A stretch of DNA of 32,000 nucleotides, taken from NCBI GenBank assembly GCA_964245695.1, contig CAXTNZ010000019.1:7181-39180 (forward strand). The letters are read 5' to 3'. The number at the start of each line of letters is the position of its first letter. Positions within the stretch are counted from its first letter, which is position 1. The notes beneath the pieces are model-generated. The model saw nothing but the letters and a program-made list of their open reading frames with translations. It was not told the DNA's origin and did not search any database. This document shows, one piece after another, positions 6,318 to 28,971 of this stretch. The stretch is from an uncultured bacterium. GTDB taxonomy: Bacteria > Cyanobacteriota > Cyanobacteriia > Cyanobacteriales > Nostocaceae. The translations under genes were made by a program, and so were the position numbers.

Positions 6318-8240
6318 TTAAGCTAACGCCGAAAACTCTGTCTTTCTGTTGTTTCTACCTAATTCTAAATATACTAATAATGCATTGATATCAGCAGGAT
6401 TAACGCCACCAATCCGTGCAGCTTGACCGAGTGTCAGCGGTTTTACTGTGTTTAACTTCTCCCGTGCTTCTTTAGATAAGGTATCAATCGTTGCGTAATC
6501 CAAATTTCCTGGCAACTGGCGATGTGCTTGACGAGCAATTTGGTCGATCTGATTTTGTTGCCGTTGCAGATACCCTGAATACTTAATGTCAATTTCTGCA
6601 CCTTCTTTCTCAGCCGAGTTGAGGTTGGGGTTGCCCAGTTTATATTTGTCGAGGTCAACGTAATGAAATCCCGGACGCCGTAGCAAGTCAGCTAGGGTGA
6701 TTGAGCCTTTGATTGCTTGTTTAGCTTCAGAGGCGATCGTCATTCCGATTTCTGACTGTTCTTTCACCCGCGTTGCATAAAGCCGTTCTTTTTCGGCTGT
6801 AATATTCTCTTGCTTGCGGGTAAATAACTCCCATCGGCGATCGTCAATCAAGCCGATTTCTCGTCCCAAGGGTGTCAGGCGTTGGTCGGCATTATCAGAA
6901 CGCAATACTAAACGATACTCTGACCTACTCGTAAGCATACGGTAAGGCTCACGTAAATCCTTGGTACACAGGTCATCTAACAGCGTTCCGATGTAACTTT
7001 CCTCACGGGCAAAAACAATCATCTCCTGACCGCACACAAACCGCGCCGCGTTAATTCCAGCAACAATTCCTTGGGTTGCTGCTTCTTCATAGCCAGTTGT
7101 CCCATTAATCTGTCCCGCACAAAATAACCCAGCAACTTTCTTGGTCATTAATGTCGGATAACACTGAGTTGCAGGTAAGTAATCGTACTCAACCGCATAA
7201 GCTGGGCGAAGCATCGCACAGTTTTCCAAACCGGGGAGACTCCGCAACATTAAAAGTTGCAAATTTTCTGGCAACCCTGTGGAAAAGCCTTGAATATAAA
7301 GTTCCGGAATATCTCGCCCTTCCGGTTCAATAAAGATTTGGTGACTTTCCTTATCGGCAAAGCGGACAATTTTATCTTCAATACTCGGACAATATCGCGG
7401 TCCTTTGGCTTCCACCCAACCACCATAAACCGGCGACAAATGCAAATTTTCCCGTATTAGGCGATGAGTTTCCGCCGTCGTGCGGGTAATATAACAAGGC
7501 ATTTGTTCCCTTTCCACCCACACATCCGGGTCAAAGCTAAACCAGCGGACTTCTTCATCTCCTGGTTGGAGTGCCATTTTGCTGTAGTCTACAGACCGCT
7601 TGTCAACTCGTGCTGGCGTTCCTGTCTTCAGTCGCCCGGTTTCAAATCCCAAACGATTCAGAGTTTGCGTCAACCCCTCAGCCGCAAATTCCCCAGCGCG
7701 TCCTGCCGCCATCGACTTATTACCAACCCAAATCCGTCCCCCTAAAAACGTCCCCGTCGTCAAAATGACCGCTTTGCAACCAAACGCCACGCCGAAGTAA
7801 GTCTGAACGCCGATAACTTCATCGTTAGCACCGATAACTAAATCCGTCGCCATTGCTTCCCGGATTGTTAAGTTTTCTTGATTTTCGACAATATTTTTCA
7901 TCACCGCAGCATATTCCCGCTTATCAGTCTGGGCGCGTAATGCCCAAACCGCAGGTCCCCGTGAAGAGTTGAGAATGCGCTTTTGTAGGTAGGTGCGGTC
8001 TGCGATTTTGCCGATTTCCCCGCCGAGTGCATCCACTTCATGGGTCAACTGGGATTTCGCAGGACCACCCACCGCCGGGTTACAAGGTTGCCAAGCGATT
8101 TTATCCAAGGTGAGTGTCAGCAGCAGGGTACGACAGCCGAGGCGTGCGCTAGCGAGGGCTGCTTCGCAACCAGAGTGACCTGCACCGACGACAATGACAT
8201 CGAAAGCGTCTTGGAATTCAATGGAATTGTGCATGGTCAT
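6318..8240 (-). CDS. mnmG: tRNA uridine 5-carboxymethylaminomethyl modification enzyme MnmG (GidA)
   Basis: 640-aa ORF with the N-terminal FAD motif [22 protein letters not shown]. The GidA blocks [29 protein letters not shown] and RPGYAVEYDY-like PAYAVEYDY are conserved. Confidence 0.95.
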
Positions 8241-21615: not shown

Positions 21616-22035
21616 AATGCATCGTCAAACATGAGTGTTAATCCAAGCCCAAATAAATACTGAGAATATCAATTTAGTAAGTAATATATTACTCAAATAT
21701 CGCTCAGTACCCATTCCCGGACGTAGTAGCTGCAAGTTGTATGCGATGGCTCCGCCCAACCTAGGCATCGCCTAATTCATACCTCAATTGGTGCAACGTT
21801 CATCGCCCACATAATTTATTAAAAAAATACTTGCTTCATGCATTTATCTGTGCAATTATGTCTTCAGTTATAAAATACGGCTTGTCTACCAAGTTACAGT
21901 AGTTGCTTGGCAGATATCTAGTATTAATCCATTTTTAGCCAGTAGGTCAGAAGTATTGTCCAACAAGTCTGAAGTGTCATCACTCAGGCTGCGATCGGCA
22001 TGACCAAAGTAATTGCACAATTGGGAGAGAAATCA

Positions 22036-23409
22036 ATGAGTAAATACAAACTACCAGCAATTGGTCGTCGCCAGTTTGTACAGGCTACACTTGCCAGTAC
22101 AATCTTGACATTAGGAGGTTCGAGCGTTTTTTCGGCTATAGCTGCCAGACGAAAGCGTCCGAATATACTGTTCATTTTGACGGATGACTTGGGCTGGGGC
22201 GACATTGGTATTTATGGAAAAACCTATGAAACGCCAAATTTAGACCAGTTGGCAAGGGAAGGTACGCGCTTCACCAATGCCTATGCAGCGCAAACTGTTT
22301 GCACGCCAACACGGATCGGCTTTTTTACAGGTCGTTATCCAGCGCGATTGCCAGTTGGTCTTCAAGAACCTCTAGTTGAAAGTGACAATGTAGGATTACC
22401 GCCGGAACAGCCAACAATCGCTTCCCTTTTAAAAGCTAAAGGTTATGAGACAGCATTAGTTGGTAAATGGCACGCTGGCTTTCTTCCAGATTACGGTCCA
22501 CTCAAGAGTGGCTTTGATGAGTTCTTTGGAAACTATAGTGGAGGGATCGACTACTTTACTCACAAAGGTCTAGATGGAAAACTTGACTTCTATGAAGGTG
22601 AAGTGCCTCTAGATAAACCGGGCTACGCTACAGACTTGTATACTGAACGTGCTGTTGAATTCCTCAAAAGACACCGCAATCAACCATTTTACCTAAGCCT
22701 TCATTACAATGCACCTCATTGGCCCTGGGAAGGACCAGAAGATGAAGAGTTAAGTCGAACTTTCTACAATTCCAACGCCTATACTGCTGGAGGGTCAAAA
22801 GAAACTTACGCTGCAATGTTAAAAAGTTTGGACGACGGAGTTGGTAAAGTCTTACAAGCTTTAAAAGATTCTGGGCAGGCTGATAACACTATAGTCATTT
22901 TTGCCAGTGATAACGGCGGTGAGAGATTCTCTGATATTGGACCTTTTCAAGGGATAAAAGGCAGTTTGTATGAAGGTGGTATACGAGTCCCCACTTTTAT
23001 CCGCTGGCCAGGAGTGATTCAACCCAACCAGGTAAATAACCAAGTTACTATCACTCAGGACTTGACAGCAACAATTCTGGCAGCAACAGGTACTTCACCC
23101 GATCCCAACTATCCACTGGATGGTCGAAATTTGCTTCCAGTCCTTCTGGGCAAAAAACCTGTTTCCCCGCGAACGCTGTTCTGGCGCTATAAATCTAATG
23201 TTGGTGGACGTGCTCCAGGTCAACTCCAAGCAGCAGTCCGAAGCGGAGATTGGAAGTACTTGCGGCAAGGAGAGAAAGAATATCTATTTAATCTTGCCAC
23301 TGACGAAGGCGAACAAACTGACCTCAAAGATAATAATCCCAAAGTATTCCAGCGGCTGCGCGATCGCTTTGAGGAATGGAATGAACAAGTACTGCCTTAC
23401 CCAGTTTAA
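22036..23409 (+). CDS. Arylsulfatase (formylglycine-dependent sulfatase family) with Tat signal peptide
   Basis: The ORF is open from 22000, but ATG 22036 has a GGAGAG RBS and gives MSKYKLPAIGRRQFVQATLAS (twin-arginine signal). It has the N-terminal metal motif ILFILTDDLGWGD and the formylglycine motif CTPTR in VCTPTRIGFFTGR. Confidence 0.9.
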   Translation: MSKYKLPAIGRRQFVQATLASTILTLGGSSVFSAIAARRKRPNILFILTDDLGWGDIGIYGKTYETPNLDQLAREGTRFTNAYAAQTVCTPTRIGFFTGRYPARLPVGLQEPLVESDNVGLPPEQPTIASLLKAKGYETALVGKWHAGFLPDYGPLKSGFDEFFGNYSGGIDYFTHKGLDGKLDFYEGEVPLDKPGYATDLYTERAVEFLKRHRNQPFYLSLHYNAPHWPWEGPEDEELSRTFYNSNAYTAGGSKETYAAMLKSLDDGVGKVLQALKDSGQADNTIVIFASDNGGERFSDIGPFQGIKGSLYEGGIRVPTFIRWPGVIQPNQVNNQVTITQDLTATILAATGTSPDPNYPLDGRNLLPVLLGKKPVSPRTLFWRYKSNVGGRAPGQLQAAVRSGDWKYLRQGEKEYLFNLATDEGEQTDLKDNNPKVFQRLRDRFEEWNEQVLPYPV

Positions 23410-23422
23410 GGAAAAGTCATTT

Positions 23423-24415
23423 ATGCAGGAACGTACAGTACGCCAAGTTTCATCTGGTAAATCTGACAAGCAAATCGCTGCCAAGCGTCCTGGTAAAGTC
23501 CCTGATAAAGACATGAACTGGATACCGGGCGGCGCTTTTATGATGGGGTCTGACCACCACTACCCAGAGGAAAGTCCAGCCCATCTTGTCCGTGTAGATG
23601 GCTTCTGGATGGATCGCTACGCCGTCACCAACAAGCAATTCCAACGTTTTGTGAAAGCAACTGGCTACGTAACAGTAGCGGAGCGTCCACCGAACGCAGA
23701 AGATTATCCAGGAGCCATACCGGAACTGCTAGTACCAGGCTCGGCTGTATTTCAGCAGCCCAACCATCCAGTAAATCCACAAACTTGTAGCTGGTGGATC
23801 TATGTGCCTGGTGCTAACTGGCGACATCCAGCAGGACCTGGAAGTTCTATCAAGGGGCGAGAAAATTATCCTGTAGTGCATATTGCTTATGAAGATGCTC
23901 TTGCTTATGCAGCTTGGGCAGGCAAAGTGCTGCCAACAGAGGCACAGTGGGAATTTGCTGCTCGCGGTGGGCTGGAAGGTGCTGTCTACACTTGGGGCAA
24001 TGAATTTGCCCCCAAAGGCAAGCGGATGGCTAACACTTGGGAAGGTGAGTTCCCTTGGCAAAACCTCAAGCCGCACTCTGCTGGAGCAGAATCTGTCGGC
24101 TTGTATCCTCCAAATGCCTATGGTTTGTACGATATCATAGGCAACGTTTGGGAGTGGACAACTGACTGGTATCGAGATCAGCACCGAGAAAATAAGACGA
24201 AATCTTGCTGTATTCCAGTCAACCCCAGAGGCGGATCACAAGAAGAGAGCTTTGACCCAAATATACCGTCCCGAATACCTAGAAAGGTACTCAAGGGTGG
24301 TTCCTTTCTCTGTGCGCCTAACTATTGCCAGCGTTATCGACCAGCCGCACGTCATCCAGAAACAGTAGATACCTCAACGTGTCATATCGGATTTCGTTGT
24401 GTAGTCAATGTGTAG
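23423..24415 (+). CDS. Formylglycine-generating enzyme (FGE/SUMF1 family)
   Basis: The track ORF starts at 23120 but overlaps the sulfatase. The in-frame ATG at 23423 (MQERTVRQ) is 13 nt after the sulfatase stop. FGE blocks are MNWIPGGAFMMGSD, PAHLVRVDGFWMDRYAVTN, NYPVVHIAYEDALAYAAWAGKVLPTEAQWEFAARGG, GNVWEWTTDWY and LKGGSFLCAPNYCQRYRPAAR. Confidence 0.9.
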   Translation: MQERTVRQVSSGKSDKQIAAKRPGKVPDKDMNWIPGGAFMMGSDHHYPEESPAHLVRVDGFWMDRYAVTNKQFQRFVKATGYVTVAERPPNAEDYPGAIPELLVPGSAVFQQPNHPVNPQTCSWWIYVPGANWRHPAGPGSSIKGRENYPVVHIAYEDALAYAAWAGKVLPTEAQWEFAARGGLEGAVYTWGNEFAPKGKRMANTWEGEFPWQNLKPHSAGAESVGLYPPNAYGLYDIIGNVWEWTTDWYRDQHRENKTKSCCIPVNPRGGSQEESFDPNIPSRIPRKVLKGGSFLCAPNYCQRYRPAARHPETVDTSTCHIGFRCVVNV

Positions 24416-24507: not shown

Positions 24508-24885
24508 ATGGAACCTGCTACACTAACAGCAGCTGCGATCGCTACTTTACTCATTACCAAAGCTTTTGAGAAAACTGGCGAAATCATCGGCGAAAAAGCT
24601 TGGAATGAAGGCGAGAAGTTGGTATTGCTGCTCAGGCGTAAAGAACCATCAATTGCAAATGCTGTAGAATTAGCTCAAACACGACCTCTAGATTATGGTC
24701 AAGCTCATTTAATTGGACAGCAAGTTGAGCAAGCAGCAACCAAAGATCCGGAAATTCGGGAAGCTGTTGCAGATGTGGCGAAGTCAGCCGAACCTAAATT
24801 AACAACATCTATGATTGAAAATTGGCAAGGTATCAACAATAAAGGCAGAATTGATAATATTTCTGGCAATACCTTCCATTTTTGA
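24508..24885 (+). CDS. Small alpha-helical protein; most likely the detached N-terminal (effector/adaptor-like) domain of the downstream NB-ARC/TPR protein
   Basis: 125-aa ATG ORF. It ends at TGA 24883-24885 in exactly the same reading frame as the NB-ARC ORF. The 60 nt between them contain no further stop. Confidence 0.55.
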   Translation: MEPATLTAAAIATLLITKAFEKTGEIIGEKAWNEGEKLVLLLRRKEPSIANAVELAQTRPLDYGQAHLIGQQVEQAATKDPEIREAVADVAKSAEPKLTTSMIENWQGINNKGRIDNISGNTFHF

Positions 24886-24945
24886 CTACAGTCGTCCGAA
24901 CGGGAACGGACAAAGTTAACTCCCACCACCGAAATACCAGATAAT

Positions 24946-26904
24946 TTGCCTTGGAGTGGGGCGACAAAGTTCGTCGGGCGGGAAACAGAACTCGCACGCC
25001 TCCACCAATTATTGCAGGAAAATGATTCTGTTGCCATTGCTGCTATTACTGGTATGGGTGGTGTCGGAAAAACTGAACTGGCGTTGCGATATGCAATGAC
25101 TCAGCGGGAATTTTACTCTGGCGGCGTTTGTTGGTGTGGAGTGAAAAGCGGTGATGTCGGTTTCCAGGTAGTACAATTTGCTCGCACTCACCTTGATTTA
25201 AACCCGCCCACTGATTTTAATTTAATCGACCAGGTAAAATACTGTTGGCGGCACTGGCGTGGTGGTAATGTTTTGTTAGTGCTGGATAATGTAACTATAT
25301 ATAAAGAAATTCAGCTCTATTTACCGCCGCCATCCTCCCGGTTTAAGGTGTTGCTGACTTCCAGAAAGCACTTTGGGCAGATTGAGAAGTTATCATTAGA
25401 TGTGTTGCAACCGCCAGCGGCGTTGGAATTGTTGCGAAATCTCGTTGGGGAAGAACGGGTTAATGTAGAGACGCGAAATTTCGCGTCTCTACCCGAAAGA
25501 TTGGGATATTTACCTTTAGGAATAGAGTTGGTAGGGCGCTATCTCGCCAGAAAACAAGATTTATCCCTGGCAGAAATGTTACAAAGGTTAGAGAAAAAGA
25601 AACTCAAAGAGCGTTCTTTGTCTCAACCAGAAGAAAATATGACAGCACAGCAGGGTGTGGAAGCAGCTTTTGAGTTAAGTTGGGAAGAATTAACCGACAA
25701 CGATAAGCAACTCGCCTGTTTGCTGAGTTTATTTGCTGCTGCACCGATACCTTGGCAGTTGGTAGAATCTTGCTTACCTGATGTGGATACAGAAGAGTTA
25801 GAAGAAAGTCGAGATGAGAAGCTGCTGAATTTGCATTTGCTACAGCGTAAGGCAAAGGGAATTTATCAACTGCATCCACTGCTGCGAGAATTCTTTCAGG
25901 CGAAGCTAGAAGCACCACCTTTTCAGGAAAATTCGGGGGATCTTAAACAAGCTTTTGCTACAGTAATGGTAGCAGTTGCCAAGGAAATTCCTCAAACCGC
26001 CAACCGTGAGAAAATCACGGATGTCGCCCCTAAACCTCATTTAGCAGAAGTAGCCAAGAATCTAAGTCAATACGTTAGCGATGAAGATTTAATTTGGGCT
26101 TTCCTCGGTAACGCTGCATTCTACTATAGTGAGGGATTGTATCACCTGGCAGAACCTTGGTTTAAGCAATGTCTAGAAGTTATTAAAAAGCGCTTAGGAG
26201 AGGAACATCCCTCTGTTGCAGTTAGCCTTAACAATCTGGCGTTACTCTACCGTTCCCAAGAAAGGTACAGCGAAGCCGAACCCCTGTTTCAACAAGCTTT
26301 GGAACTTACGCTACGCCTCCACAAAGAGGAACATCTCGATATTGCCACTAGCTTGCACAACCTGGCTAGTCTCTACCACTCCCAAGGACGGTACAGCGAA
26401 GCCGAAACACTCTTCAAACAAGCTTTGGAACTTACGCGACGCCTGCTGGGAGAGGAACATTCCCATGTCGCCATTTGCCTTGATAACCTGGCGCTAGTTT
26501 ACCGTTCCCAAGGACGTTATACCGAAGCCGAACCGCTGAACCTGCAAGCTTTGGAATTATGGCAACGCCTTTTAGGAGAGGAACATCTCCATGTCGCTGT
26601 TAGCCTCAACAACCTGGCGCTAGTCTACCATTCCCAAGGACGGTACAGCGAAGCTGAAACACTGTTCAAACAAGCTTTAGAACTATGGCAACGCCTTGTA
26701 GGAGAGGAACATCCGCATGTCGCCACTAGCCTCAATAATCTGGCGGTACTCTACCGTTTCCAAAAACGTTACACCGAAGCGGAACTCTTGTATGTGAAAG
26801 CTTTGGAGATTCGTGAGCAACGTTTAGGTATGAATCATCCCCACACTATCACTACTCGTGAAAATTTGGCATTTCTTCGCGCTGAGATAACTTCAGAGCA
26901 GTAA
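24946..26904 (+). CDS. NLR-like STAND NTPase: NB-ARC domain plus C-terminal TPR_10/TPR_12 (kinesin-light-chain-type) repeats
   Basis: 652-aa ORF as given, with a TTG start inside the motif NLPWSG. It has FVGRETELARLHQLL, P-loop GMGGVGKTELA, Walker B VLLVLDNV and LGYLPLGIELVG (GLPL motif). About six 42-aa repeats follow, of the form LNNLALLYRSQGRYSEAEPLFQQALEL..RLLGEEHP.VA.S. No ATG or GTG start is available before the P-loop. Confidence 0.85.
   Translation: MPWSGATKFVGRETELARLHQLLQENDSVAIAAITGMGGVGKTELALRYAMTQREFYSGGVCWCGVKSGDVGFQVVQFARTHLDLNPPTDFNLIDQVKYCWRHWRGGNVLLVLDNVTIYKEIQLYLPPPSSRFKVLLTSRKHFGQIEKLSLDVLQPPAALELLRNLVGEERVNVETRNFASLPERLGYLPLGIELVGRYLARKQDLSLAEMLQRLEKKKLKERSLSQPEENMTAQQGVEAAFELSWEELTDNDKQLACLLSLFAAAPIPWQLVESCLPDVDTEELEESRDEKLLNLHLLQRKAKGIYQLHPLLREFFQAKLEAPPFQENSGDLKQAFATVMVAVAKEIPQTANREKITDVAPKPHLAEVAKNLSQYVSDEDLIWAFLGNAAFYYSEGLYHLAEPWFKQCLEVIKKRLGEEHPSVAVSLNNLALLYRSQERYSEAEPLFQQALELTLRLHKEEHLDIATSLHNLASLYHSQGRYSEAETLFKQALELTRRLLGEEHSHVAICLDNLALVYRSQGRYTEAEPLNLQALELWQRLLGEEHLHVAVSLNNLALVYHSQGRYSEAETLFKQALELWQRLVGEEHPHVATSLNNLAVLYRFQKRYTEAELLYVKALEIREQRLGMNHPHTITTRENLAFLRAEITSEQ
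25465..25492. repeat. Perfect 28-bp palindrome GTAGAGACGCGAAATTTCGCGTCTCTAC embedded in-frame in the NB-ARC coding sequence
   Basis: Read directly: GTAGAGACGCGAAA is the reverse complement of TTTCGCGTCTCTAC. It encodes VETRNFASLP just upstream of the GLPL motif. It belongs to the same repeat family as 19362-19426 and 31619-31650. Confidence 0.9.
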
Positions 26905-26950
26905 AATTCAAGTTCTCAGCCTCAACGATGAAGTTTTAAACTCGGCTGTT

Positions 26951-27167
26951 CTCGTTCTTAGTGAGAATGTTCCTGTTCTTAGTGAGAACGTTCTCGTTTC
27001 AACCCAGAACTTTCAGCCTTTGAGGCTCATCGTTCATGCTCAGAGGCTCATCGTTCACCTTCTGAGGCTCATCGTTCATGCTCAGAGGCTCATCGTTCAC
27101 CTTCTGAGGCTCATCGTTCACCTTCTGAGGCTCATCGTTCAGCCTCTGAGGCTCAACTTCCGAGTTC
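26951..27167. repeat. Two adjacent tandem-repeat arrays with 21-bp period (three units of a GTTCTTAGTGAGAA type, then about seven units of TGAGGCTCATCGTTCACCTTC)
   Basis: The first array has units at 26951, 26972 and 26993. After a 7-nt spacer, the second array has units at 27021, 27042, 27063, 27084, 27105 and 27126, plus a degenerate unit at 27147. Variation is confined to positions 16-21 of the unit (ATGCTC / ACCTTC / AGCCTC). Confidence 0.9.
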
Positions 27168-27263: not shown

Positions 27264-27473
27264 ATGTTAATTACATACACGGCAAAATATACAAAAACTA
27301 ATAGCGGATATATGGGACAACTGATTGAATGGCAAGAAGTCATCACAGAGGGAGAAACCATAGAAGAATGTAGGGTGATGTTGCAAGACGCAACCAAAGA
27401 AATGATTCTCGCTTATCGTCAACAAAATAAAGAAATTCCCACAGGTGATTCTTTGCTCAACAAATTCCTATAG
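27264..27473 (+). CDS. HicB-family (UPF0150-like) antitoxin, orphan
   Basis: 69-aa ORF with YTAKYTKTNSGYMGQLIEWQEVITEGETIEECRVMLQDATKEMILAY, typical of short HicB antitoxins. No HicA ORF is adjacent. Confidence 0.65.
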   Translation: MLITYTAKYTKTNSGYMGQLIEWQEVITEGETIEECRVMLQDATKEMILAYRQQNKEIPTGDSLLNKFL

Positions 27474-27503: not shown

Positions 27504-27866
27504 TCATATCGGTAATCGCCTCACTCGGAAAGTTTCATTACTCACAGAAATAATTGCCCCTACCTCTAAATCTTCTTGACATTCACGCAAAACTTGCGTC
27601 AACCGTTGATTAATTGCATCGTAATTTTCATTCCCCAACCTAAATAAAATCACACTGGGTAAACTATCGCCACTCACTGCTAAAAGCTGGGCAAAATCTA
27701 AATCTATAGTTAATAAAATTCTCCCTTCTGCACGGGCTTTAATTAAAATCTCATCATCTGGTAGTCTTTGCAAACCTTCATCGCGCAAATGCACCACATC
27801 ATAACCACCACTACGCAACCAAAACACAGTGCGTAATGAAATTCCCATATCTGCCAAAAACTTCAT
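27504..27866 (-). CDS. DUF5615 family PIN-like (Mut7-C-like) nuclease domain protein, putative toxin
   Basis: 120-aa ORF with MKFLADMGISLRTVFWLRSGGYDVVHLRDEGLQRLPDDEILIKARAEGRILLTIDLDF, characteristic of DUF5615. It lies downstream of a DUF433 gene with a 9-nt gap. Confidence 0.8.
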   Translation of the reverse strand: MKFLADMGISLRTVFWLRSGGYDVVHLRDEGLQRLPDDEILIKARAEGRILLTIDLDFAQLLAVSGDSLPSVILFRLGNENYDAINQRLTQVLRECQEDLEVGAIISVSNETFRVRRLPI

Positions 27867-27875
27867 GATTATTTT

Positions 27876-28106
27876 TTAAGCACTTTTGAAGGGATAAACC
27901 CGCTCTTGAGTCAACCACGCCGCGTAAAGTAGAGATTGACGAATATCCTCTGGTTCTAAATCAGGATATTCTTCTAAAATCTCCGCTACAGGTTTGCCAT
28001 TAGCTACCAAATTTACGACTAAAGAAACCGGAATTCGCATCCCGCGAATGCAAGCTTGTCCACCCATTACGCTAGGGTCAAATGTAACTCTCTCTAGACC
28101 TAACAT
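27876..28106 (-). CDS. DUF433 domain protein, putative antitoxin partner of DUF5615
   Basis: 76-aa ORF with DPSVMGGQACIRGMRIPVSLVVNLVANG...ILEEYPDLEPEDIRQSLLYAA, the DUF433 signature. Confidence 0.85.
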   Translation of the reverse strand: MLGLERVTFDPSVMGGQACIRGMRIPVSLVVNLVANGKPVAEILEEYPDLEPEDIRQSLLYAAWLTQERVYPFKSA

Positions 28107-28275: not shown

Positions 28276-28971
28276 TCACCATCCCATAATTCTCCTCTTC
28301 TCCCAATATTGAGCAACCCTGACTTCCCACTGTCGCCAATACTCATTCATCGCTTCTCGTTCAAACCAAAATACCTCAGCTTCTCTTTCCGGTATCGCTA
28401 CAACCAACAAAGCATGAGCAATTTCAATTCCATAATCTTGATAATACTCATTAACAGCTCCCATATACGCTGTTAATTGCAGTGGATGTTCATACAAACG
28501 CTCAATTGAACCTTTCGGTTTATCTGCGGTTTTCCACTCGCAAACGCAGGGAACACCTTGATAACTAGCCACACAATCAACTTTGCCAGAATAGCTCAAA
28601 TTGTAGTGAAAAACTGAGCCTTCCACGAGTCTAACTGTGTCAACTTCTTCTAAAACAGGTTGAATACTTTGCCAGTAAGGAAGACTCGCTTCTGAACAAA
28701 CCGGATTTTCACCGAGTAAATAACGTTCTATTTGTTTGTGGGTTTGAGTACCGCGACGACTAGCGGTTGATGTAATTCGCGTTGCTTCTTCTGTACCGAC
28801 ACGCGCTTTCCAATTTGACAGTCTGTCACGCTGTTCTTGGGGTTTGGTAGCATTCAGTATTGTGGTGACACTAGGCAAGCGATCGCCTTTAGCATCTACA
28901 TAATATTGTTTACCATTTTCCCGCACCGATTTGGCATTAATACGGGGTAGCAATAAGGTATCAAATGGCAT
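28276..28971 (-). CDS. PD-(D/E)XK superfamily nuclease (RecB/Cas4-like exonuclease fold, without Cys cluster)
   Basis: 231-aa ORF with the catalytic pattern GKVD (D) ... CEWKT (E-x-K) followed by QLTAYMGA (QxxxY-like). Monocistronic. Confidence 0.65.
   Translation of the reverse strand: MPFDTLLLPRINAKSVRENGKQYYVDAKGDRLPSVTTILNATKPQEQRDRLSNWKARVGTEEATRITSTASRRGTQTHKQIERYLLGENPVCSEASLPYWQSIQPVLEEVDTVRLVEGSVFHYNLSYSGKVDCVASYQGVPCVCEWKTADKPKGSIERLYEHPLQLTAYMGAVNEYYQDYGIEIAHALLVVAIPEREAEVFWFEREAMNEYWRQWEVRVAQYWEKRRIMGW

Follow-up and report, generated by a model that had tools for sequence, protein, structure and literature searches.

Does the lone in-frame TGA that separates a small, predicted helical protein from an NLR-like NTPase mark a gene recently broken in two, or does it belong to the way in which both products are made? 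The question is raised by a 32,000-nucleotide (nt) stretch of DNA (hereafter the window, meaning the whole stretch that was analysed) from an uncultured bacterium of the Nostocaceae (assembly GCA_964245695.1, contig CAXTNZ010000019.1). In it, an open reading frame (ORF) of 125 amino acids (aa) at 24508-24885 and a longer ORF at 24946-26904 share one frame, with a start offset of 438 nt. They are parted by a single stop, the TGA at 24883-24885, after which comes a C; the 20 codons after the stop are open, reading LQSSERERTKLTPTTEIPDN and continuing into LPWSGATKFVGRETEL. We consider it probable that the locus is one translational unit of a Bell/BASS-type NLR cell-death system set up for programmed UGA read-through. 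Programmed read-through is proposed because the junction combines exclusive use of UGA, a C at +4, the triplet CUA, an 8-nt spacer, a pseudoknot predicted to begin at +12 and an in-frame coding extension that has no start codon of its own.

The shared frame, the offset, the single TGA and the open codons had been given in a preliminary description of the window, and all were confirmed on its sequence. Its call of an NLR-like NB-ARC/TPR protein is also borne out: the downstream ORF matches NB-ARC (PF00931, E=2.3e-15, 56.9 bits against a cut-off of 23.5) and TPR repeats of Pfam (TPR_12, E=2.6e-84; TPR_10, E=1.9e-74; 5-6 units), and is an NLR-like STAND NTPase with an NB-ARC domain and a C-terminal TPR repeat (sensor) array. 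The same description likened its architecture to that of Avs-type proteins, a membership that is not supported: on the window PADLOC finds no Avs or bNACHT model, just a generic TPR model (1.2e-16) and weak PDC matches. Read-through of the UGA is needed to join an N-terminal effector or adaptor module to the NB-ARC domain; the ORF counted from TTG 24946 lacks one. The features of the locus are as follows.

24508-24885, plus strand: short-product ORF of 125 aa plus TGA, ATG start; candidate Bell-like helical domain and BASS-like C-terminal tail
24817-24882, plus strand: candidate BASS-like G/N-rich C-terminal motif ENWQGINNKGRIDNISGNTFHF, residues 104-125, from the family consensus; predicted local distance difference test (pLDDT) <50
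24883-24888, plus strand: leaky stop context UGA-CUA, conserved in in-frame relatives
24886-24893, plus strand: 8-nt spacer CUACAGUC from the stop to the predicted pseudoknot, of invariant length in alignments A2 and A3
24894-24924, plus strand: predicted H-type RNA pseudoknot, from covariation in 102 distinct sequences
24886-24945, plus strand: linker of 20 open codons LQSSERERTKLTPTTEIPDN, free of start codons, from the frame reading of the window
24886-26904, plus strand: putative NLR-like read-through extension of 672 codons (Pfam NB-ARC and TPR)
~24982-25635, plus strand: NB-ARC domain, with Walker A at 25051-25074 (GMGGVGKT) (Pfam)
~26080-26886, plus strand: TPR array (Pfam)

The stop and the frame are conserved in relatives

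Through relatives of the small protein we fetched 80 related cyanobacterial loci from different species and read their DNA. The small ORF, the TGA and an NLR ORF open in frame 0 follow one another without any other stop in 62 of the 80 loci, which together with the window make up 63 in-frame sequences. The stop is TGA in all 63 and never TAA or TAG, the base at +4 is C in 62, and CTA comes next in 53. Among the other long open frames of the same loci (n=321), TAA is used 172 times and TAG 94 times (together 83% of stops), TGA 55 times, and TGA-C only 8 times (2.5%). Frame 0 stays open for 100-1100 codons past the stop in nearly all of the 62 loci (L048 leaves its contig after 28). The linker from the stop to the FVGR motif measures 25, 26, 27, 28 or 29 codons, the differences always being multiples of 3. 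The downstream NTPase is mostly an NB-ARC protein; it is of the NACHT-HEAT type in L067, L072-74 and L077-79, and in the NACHT class the P-loop lies 111-114 codons after the stop.

Recent nonsense pseudogenes and sequencing or assembly errors typically show up as a lone in-frame stop that divides two homologous-looking halves, and NLR loci do decay (L001, after 103 codons; L083, L087, L100 and L117). The preliminary description had thus held that an ancestral gene of ~800 aa was recently split by nonsense, with a sequencing error as an alternative. TGA, however, occupies the same position in more than 120 loci from genomes and metagenomes across genera, whose flanking proteins are only 40-90% identical, and in L142, an independent European Nucleotide Archive metagenome assembly of the window locus, the junction is identical base for base. 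These two observations exclude both recent pseudogenisation and a sequencing error, which we give next to no chance. Moreover, the NLR frame of the window is intact over its 672 codons, and the protein databases searched held no version in which a sense codon fuses the small protein to the NTPase. Where the preliminary description looked to orthologues for the sense codon behind the stop, the alignment has TGA; the relatives do carry two ORFs, as it had allowed, yet their NLR lies in frame and without a conserved start.

Several side observations concern the same loci. Decayed relatives in which the junction is still recognisable are L001 (Tolypothrix sp. VBCCA 56010), L016, L024, L083, L087, L100 and L117; either the NLR frame is shut after 1-103 codons (103 in L001) or the Bell ORF has a premature stop. 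Loci with this junction evidently turn over fast. The NLR is called at 610 aa in L142 and at 652 aa in the window, and this gap of 42 aa, about one TPR unit, suggests that strains may differ in TPR repeat number. In L061, a degenerate TGA-CTA junction is followed by a second Bell-like ORF and then by a P-loop protein, an arrangement of tandem effector modules. The run of five T at 24879-24883, whose last T is that of the TGA, is present in the window as the preliminary description had pointed out, but it is not conserved, for 40 of the 63 in-frame sequences have TTC as the last codon before the stop. A -1 frameshift on this run was ruled out, because the small ORF and the NLR are read in one and the same frame and because relatives lack a constant T run.

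A DNA-pattern scan of metagenome contigs, with a pattern that set no pairing at variable positions, brought 61 further junctions. In 53 of them the upstream ORF that the TGA closes is 90 aa or longer, and 6 others are truncated at a contig end; in 51, frame 0 continues without a stop for 100 codons or more. Stops occur at ~0.06 per codon in the remaining two frames, from which the chance of 100 open codons is, by our own arithmetic, ~0.2%.

Could the NLR be an ordinary second gene of an operon? It would then initiate at TTG 24946 (at GTG or TTG elsewhere), and the RNA at the junction would serve mRNA stability, processing or protein binding. Gene callers do annotate a 652-aa NLR from this TTG, TTG or GTG is found at codons 18-26 in many loci, and a weak sigma70-like match lies at 24916-24945; cyanobacteria, moreover, tolerate weak or absent Shine-Dalgarno sequences. 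As a candidate internal promoter the match at 24916-24945 (9/12) was rejected: the count of promoter-like matches is not above that in shuffled sequences, and the predicted transcription start falls after the TTG. In the window, TTG 24946 (codon 21) is the first in-frame ATG, GTG or TTG past the stop, and the second candidate is the Met within Walker A; the remark of the preliminary description that there is no good downstream start is therefore upheld. The TTG is not conserved in relatives; it encodes the L of an NLP motif and is replaced synonymously by TTA in at least 13 loci, and by CTC, CTT or ATT in others. The first in-frame ATG, GTG or TTG lies beyond the FVGR motif in L029, L042, L051, L069, L060, L063 and L070, at codon 55 in L065, where the P-loop is at codon 54, and at or beyond Walker A in L090, L097, L118, L125 and L141 of the metagenome set. 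At least 15 loci whose NLR frame is long and intact reach their first canonical start only past FVGR or at or after Walker A.

The substitution pattern upstream of any start codon also argues against an independent start. At codons 14-24 after the stop, the entropies of the three codon positions are 0.95/0.74/1.24 (a subgroup of 19 distinct sequences), similar to those of the NB-ARC region, and 13 of these 19 sequences have no start codon before codon 32; the linker upstream of any start codon thus appears to evolve as coding sequence. Indels upstream of the possible starts are all multiples of 3, and frame 0 never gains a stop, against the ~0.06 per codon of the other frames. Independent initiation would also leave the exclusive use of UGA-C unexplained and would produce an NLR without the signalling motif that is found in two-gene relatives (see below). 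We therefore regard it as unlikely. Among 36 aligned loci, the third-position entropy is 0.25 over codons 1-13 after the stop, compared with 1.0 at the end of the small ORF (its final 20 codons) and 0.9 across NB-ARC, which indicates an overlapping constraint at the nucleotide level. Over the NLPLSG codons lies another small hairpin, with the form CCCC-UGAGU-GGGG (in the window, at 24946-24961, CCUU...GGGG; TTGCCCCTGAGTGGGG in many loci), which may add to the lowered synonymous variation at codons 14-28.

A covarying RNA element after the stop

The constrained region follows one layout: UGA, CUN, a spacer of 8 nt counted from the stop, stem 1 (G-Y-C-N-G/C-N-G-R-Y), loop L1, stem 2 and loop L3. 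In the window, stem 1 pairs GUCCG (24894-98) with CGGAC (24907-11), L1 is AAC (3 nt, variable), stem 2 pairs GGGA (24902-05), which lies in the loop of stem 1, with UCCC (24921-24), and the A-rich L3 is AAAGUUAAC at 24912-20 (9 nt). The spacer places the start of the structure at +12. By its pattern of pairing, the element is predicted to be an H-type pseudoknot.

Pairing was counted over 102 distinct sequences, with the genome and metagenome sets pooled. Stem 1 is paired in 99.6% (pair 19-34, CG 67 and UA 33; pair 21-32, CG 62, UG 19, UA 13 and GC 7) and stem 2 in 93% (pair 26-48, GC 73, GU 11, CG 6 and AU 4). Taking the two stems together, the paired share is 96.7% of cells, and 64 changes are double-sided; with the strands slid the share is 17-51%, and 0 of 500 shuffles match the observed values. 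Among distinct metagenome sequences, the Y-R pair of stem 1 is C-G in 27, U-A in 26, U-G in 1 and C-A in 0 (P = 3e-14, Fisher's exact test). In stem 2, CGGAA loop variants occur together with UCCG. RNAalifold recovers stem 1 independently, and a compensatory double change in this stem distinguishes L001, the closest named relative, from the window. The covarying sites include synonymous third positions of Pro and Ser codons that pair with second positions of other codons, and the covariation is therefore not explained by constraints on the protein. The pseudoknot is absent in all 10 loci with a two-gene layout.

Two pairings seen on the way were dismissed. An outer helix UGACU/AGUYA, taken from the minimum-free-energy (MFE) fold, shows no covariation and is impossible with UGA in the A site. 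A junction match with 1 mismatch at position 7623 of the window is due to chance and lies inside a minus-strand ORF.

The covariation bears on three further explanations. First, the ~40-nt junction might be a DNA-level recombination module, at whose boundary sequence identity lets effector and NLR cassettes shuffle among paralogues, the stop and the frame being side effects. The same junction does join very different partners upstream and downstream, and there are several paralogues per genome. Compensatory changes, together with frequent G-U pairs, which point to RNA of the sense strand, nevertheless indicate selection on a fold and not on identity; the exclusive use of UGA, the upkeep of the frame and the missing starts would also go unexplained. 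Such a module would be compatible with read-through, as an added benefit and not as a replacement, and on its own we rate it as very improbable.

Second, the pseudoknot might direct termination-reinitiation or internal entry by mimicking an anticodon stem-loop on the UCC codon; it would capture ribosomes halted at the UGA, or vacant ones, and translation would restart at codon 14, with no start codon, to yield an unfused NLR. The 5-bp stem with its 8-nt loop and the end of the GGGA/UCCC pairing exactly at a codon boundary agree with this, and so does the coding signature, which is demonstrable only from codon 14 on, codons 1-13 being frozen by the RNA element. However, a pseudoknot of 31 nt lacks the ribosome-binding domains of intergenic-region internal ribosome entry sites, and any stop would serve for a restart, yet only UGA occurs, with C at +4. 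While UGA occupies the A site, the 8-nt spacer would bring the pseudoknot to the mRNA entrance, an arrangement shared with known read-through signals, and the unfused NLR would have neither BASS motif nor effector. We know of no bacterial precedent for such a restart, and we find it quite improbable, if somewhat less so than the recombination module.

Third, an in-frame UGA with a conserved stem-loop close by is the layout of a bacterial selenocysteine insertion sequence (SECIS), so that the UGA could be read as selenocysteine, with the downstream structure being SECIS-like, or by a dedicated suppressor tRNA. A search of Rfam around the stop gave no match at E<=10, a conserved GU is missing from the loop, and the predicted fold is a pseudoknot. 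The selenocysteine trait has not been detected in cyanobacteria according to the literature, and the residue would fall in a disordered linker without an obvious role. The window contains no tRNA gene, and among 60 related loci scanned there is only a tRNA-Thr (L063). Decoding of this kind is hardly credible here. Of the possibilities raised in the preliminary description, the one favoured by the conserved UGA-C and the predicted pseudoknot is low-level read-through in a leaky TGA-C context.

The 125-aa protein, its two-gene relatives and other partners of the junction

The preliminary description could not assign the N-terminal domain to a family, and the 125-aa ORF indeed has no match in Pfam, NCBIfam or PADLOC; context and motif now give a Bell-like call. 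With the 125 aa as a query against 5.8 billion proteins, 107 matches were found; all measure 70-215 aa, in most cases 124-130 aa, and they come almost without exception from Nostocales. When 1.84 billion representatives were searched with a profile, 477 matched, and of the best 150, which were inspected, three exceed 215 aa (P0195, P0222 and P0223), one of them fused to a HEAT-repeat region. A further protein search with a consensus peptide of the linker and P-loop brought only 13 short fragments and was of no help. None of the 107 homologues, nor of these best 150 of 477 representatives, is fused through a sense codon to NB-ARC or another P-loop NTPase, which argues that the stop itself is under selection. 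The preliminary description had named such an absence as a refutation of its reading; the domain is indeed never so fused, yet the NLR ORF always stays in frame.

The N-terminus of the family is conserved (MEPxTLTAAAIATLVITKAFEKTGE). In the window, this best conserved part reads MEPATLTAAAIATLLITKAFEKTGE, with A12, K18 and E21-E25 invariant, and it would fit the hydrophobic N-terminal 'MEPIS'-type helix of the membrane-targeting domains Bell, Hell and Bab. In the AlphaFold2 (AF2) model of the 125 aa, residues 8-110 are predicted to form 7 helices, and the tail (106-125) is disordered (mean pLDDT 66; tail <50). The tail has the family consensus ENWQGINIKGGTNTISGNTFNF, most homologues ending in ...NWQGINIKGGTNTISGNTFNF, and in the window it is rich in G, N, I and T and has no Pro. 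A profile search of the PDB with the small protein returned only noise from designed coiled coils, and in a Foldseek search of the AF2 model against the PDB the best E value was 1.5, Rx-CC and Bcl-2-like folds being just noise, so that no fold was assigned. An all-alpha domain of ~100 aa in a protein of <200 aa, beside and colinear with an NLR in the window and in most of the 80 related loci, makes the small protein inferentially Bell-like.

A classical two-gene layout is found in 10 of the 80 loci. There the small ORF ends in TAA, TAG or TGA-T, and the NLR lies in a different frame with its own ATG. In most of these ten, the C-terminal motif of the effector is repeated at the N-terminus of the NLR (clearly in L053, L056, L057, L059, L068 and L071). 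In L059, for example, the small protein ends in ...ENWKGINIKGGNSTINNPNFNF (in a longer view, ...TTIENWKGINIKGGNSTINNPNFNF), and the NLR begins with the same motif, MTTENWNGINIKGGNPVINI... (longer, MTTENWNGINIKGGNPVINISQSERAKLNPP...). Bell/BASS pairs are defined operationally by a motif that the effector shares with the NLR N-terminus (Dyrka et al. 2020, bioRxiv 10.1101/2020.01.06.895854), and judged by sequence the repeat in the two-gene relatives is the known Bell/BASS amyloid-signalling architecture. The NLR ORF of the window carries no copy of the tail motif. It is also evident that the linker SQSERAKLNPP, which L059 translates after the NLR's own motif, is homologous to the linker after the stop in the window, LQSSERERTKLTP; in the TGA class the whole Bell-BASS ORF therefore sits where the Met and motif of the NLR would be.

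Most ORFs upstream of the metagenome junctions look Bell-like (MEP...) and differ widely in their C-terminal motifs, and the downstream partners of the junction are NB-ARC-TPR, NACHT-HEAT and NACHT-transmembrane (TM) proteins. In L089, L104, L114, L121 and L129, alpha/beta-hydrolase ORFs (Abhydrolase_6, DUF676, PGAP1-like) stand upstream and run in frame into NACHT NTPases, the one in L129 having a long multi-TM C-terminus; the UGA-pseudoknot junction is thus not specific to Bell. With somewhat less confidence than we hold for the locus itself, we favour the view that filamentous cyanobacteria have evolved a portable bacterial read-through junction, which places effectors (Bell/BASS, alpha/beta-hydrolase) ahead of NB-ARC or NACHT sensors and provides an abundant effector and a rare fusion. 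Its signal of UGA-CUA, 8-nt spacer and pseudoknot would be convergent with retroviral and alphaviral ones, and the outcome would be a 'one-motif' amyloid signalling in which the match of motifs is guaranteed and the stoichiometry is set translationally.

Proposed mechanism and comparison with known systems

From the anatomy, the conserved stop and frame, the missing starts, the covariation and the two-gene relatives, we infer a course that extends from the occurrence and efficiency of read-through and the residue inserted to amyloid templating, membrane killing and a role in defence. Most ribosomes would halt at the UGA at 24883-85 and release the free 125-aa effector, whose hydrophobic N-terminal helix would target the membrane and whose C-terminus would carry an amyloid-type signalling motif. 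A few would decode the UGA, probably by a near-cognate tRNA such as tRNA-Trp, favoured by the weak UGA-C(UA) context and by the pseudoknot standing at the mRNA entrance while UGA is in the A site, and would make a product of ~798 aa with the order Bell-BASS-linker-NB-ARC-TPR. A single cistron would in this way fix a high ratio of effector to sensor and give the sensor an N-terminal motif identical to that of the effector; the two-gene version must encode the motif twice, whereas here one copy would serve both proteins. A ligand on the TPR array would then cause the NB-ARC to oligomerise, and the clustered motifs would template the conversion of free effector and bring about cell death. By analogy with related systems, the role of Bell/BASS-NLR loci is probably anti-phage, through abortive infection.

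A number of points weigh against this interpretation. Annotation pipelines start the NLR at TTG 24946, which in the window could in principle give the 652-aa protein. The extended fusion protein is a prediction from sequence. The single-sequence MFE of the window region is no more stable than that of shuffles (z=0.36), and the pseudoknot is consequently claimed on the basis of covariation and not of thermodynamics; it is also small (5 + 4 bp), and the covariation counts overstate the number of independent events, the sequences being phylogenetically related. Nine closely related '52-type' loci of a Nostoc sublineage (L004, L005, L006, L009, L010, L013, L014, L018 and L024) keep UGA-CUA and an intact in-frame NLR without the 3' half of the pseudoknot, whose 3' strands are taken by a 9-nt deletion, so that the pseudoknot must be dispensable there or replaced by another structure; in these loci RNAalifold gives a long-range pairing that also starts at +12 and shows no covariation. 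The Bell and BASS assignments are built on motif and context, with an AF2 model of moderate confidence, and the tail of the window protein departs from the family consensus at ~5 conserved positions. Finally, we know of no case of pseudoknot-stimulated read-through in bacteria.

The surroundings of the locus may be described briefly. Directly 3' of the NLR stop are 21-nt tandem repeats (unit TTCACCCTCTGAGGCTCATCG) at 26947-26998 (2.5 copies) and 27012-27155 (6.9 copies). They are followed by a UPF0150/HicB-like ORF (27264-27473, plus strand), a toxin-antitoxin-like pair of DUF5615 (PIN/Mut7-C-like; 27504-27866, minus strand) and DUF433 (27876-28106, minus strand), and a PD-(D/E)XK nuclease (28276-28971, minus strand). 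These genes beside the NLR look like a small defence or addiction neighbourhood. Directly upstream, on the same strand, are a sulfatase (22000-23409) and a formylglycine-generating enzyme (~23507-24415), and L142 has the same neighbours.

Bell/BASS-NLR pairs and read-through pseudoknots are each known; their combination, and a bacterial pseudoknot read-through signal, appear to be new. Stop codons and read-through go unmentioned for these systems in the papers searched (Dyrka et al. 2020; Kaur et al. 2020; the Bab/Agp preprint; a survey of STAND proteins from 2026), and keyword searches of the literature brought no mention either. A systematic screen in 2007 came to the conclusion that read-through with canonical amino acids is very rare in prokaryotes (PMC1914089). 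If programmed read-through does take place, the junction would be a natural, widespread and sequence-defined bacterial example of it, and the locus a third architecture between 'two-gene amyloid signalling' and the 'all-in-one NLR'. It would explain the working of many cyanobacterial NLRs with a seemingly bare N-terminus and of Bell proteins without an apparent partner, and suggest translational control of sensor dosage for dangerous proteins. Hundreds of Nostocales NLR genes probably carry wrong annotations, either as fragments or with a TTG or GTG start chosen arbitrarily, and screens that demand a motif on annotated NLR N-termini would have missed a whole class. A compact bacterial read-through module of 42 nt would also be a useful engineering tool.

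Among known systems, the Bell/BASS-NLR pairs of Dyrka et al. (2020) resemble the window locus in having a small all-helical protein (~100-150 aa) with a hydrophobic N-terminal helix and a G/N/Q-rich C-terminal motif of ~20-25 aa, whose gene, in Nostocales, directly precedes that of an NB-ARC/TPR or NACHT NLR and is colinear with it. They differ in that here the NLR ORF has neither the motif nor a start of its own and lies in frame behind a conserved UGA and a predicted pseudoknot. The screen in that study required the motif on the annotated NLR N-terminus (bioRxiv 10.1101/2020.01.06.895854), and the class of the window would thus escape it. Bab/Agp (BASS11) of E. coli ECOR25, for which antiphage abortive infection has been shown (bioRxiv 10.1101/2024.11.07.622273), shares a Bell-related helical effector with a 'MEPIS'-type N-terminus, a C-terminal amyloid motif and activation by an adjacent sensor with the same motif, although it consists of two genes without recoding in an enterobacterium. 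It gives experimental backing, by analogy, to the view that such pairs are antiphage cell-death systems.

With regard to the junction, its anatomy reproduces, by analogy, read-through signals that are established experimentally. The type III signal of Moloney murine leukemia virus gag-pol consists of UAG, an 8-nt spacer and an H-type pseudoknot at +12 (PMC13517186). The order of stop, 8-nt spacer and pseudoknot at +12 is shared, as would be the output of one mRNA, an abundant short product with a rare extended fusion; the virus is eukaryotic, works with 80S ribosomes and eRF1, and has UAG and a much larger pseudoknot, whereas here the signal would lie on a bacterial chromosome with 5 + 4 bp and an A-rich L3 of 9 nt. 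UGACUA is the type II hexanucleotide of eukaryotic and viral read-through (Sindbis-like alphaviruses, mammalian genes), often accompanied by a downstream structure (PMC13517186). The hexanucleotide of the window is identical to it, though the type II motif has been characterised in eukaryotic translation only. For bacteria, only the general leakiness of UGA-C is known to us.

In the coat/A1 gene of Q-beta, a bacterial ribosome reads UGA at low frequency into a functional extended protein from the same cistron; unlike the window junction, it is a phage gene with a UGA-A context. To our knowledge, no dedicated stimulatory pseudoknot is known for it. The Q-beta sequence is entered as 'n.c.' in a table of read-through signals (PMC13517186). 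In fungi, HET-S/NWD2 and the 'all-in-one' HeLo-NLR likewise couple a membrane-targeting helical killer to an NLR, through a shared amyloid motif or by fusion (Dyrka et al. 2020), and the window locus would realise both of these architectures from one ORF by means of a leaky stop.

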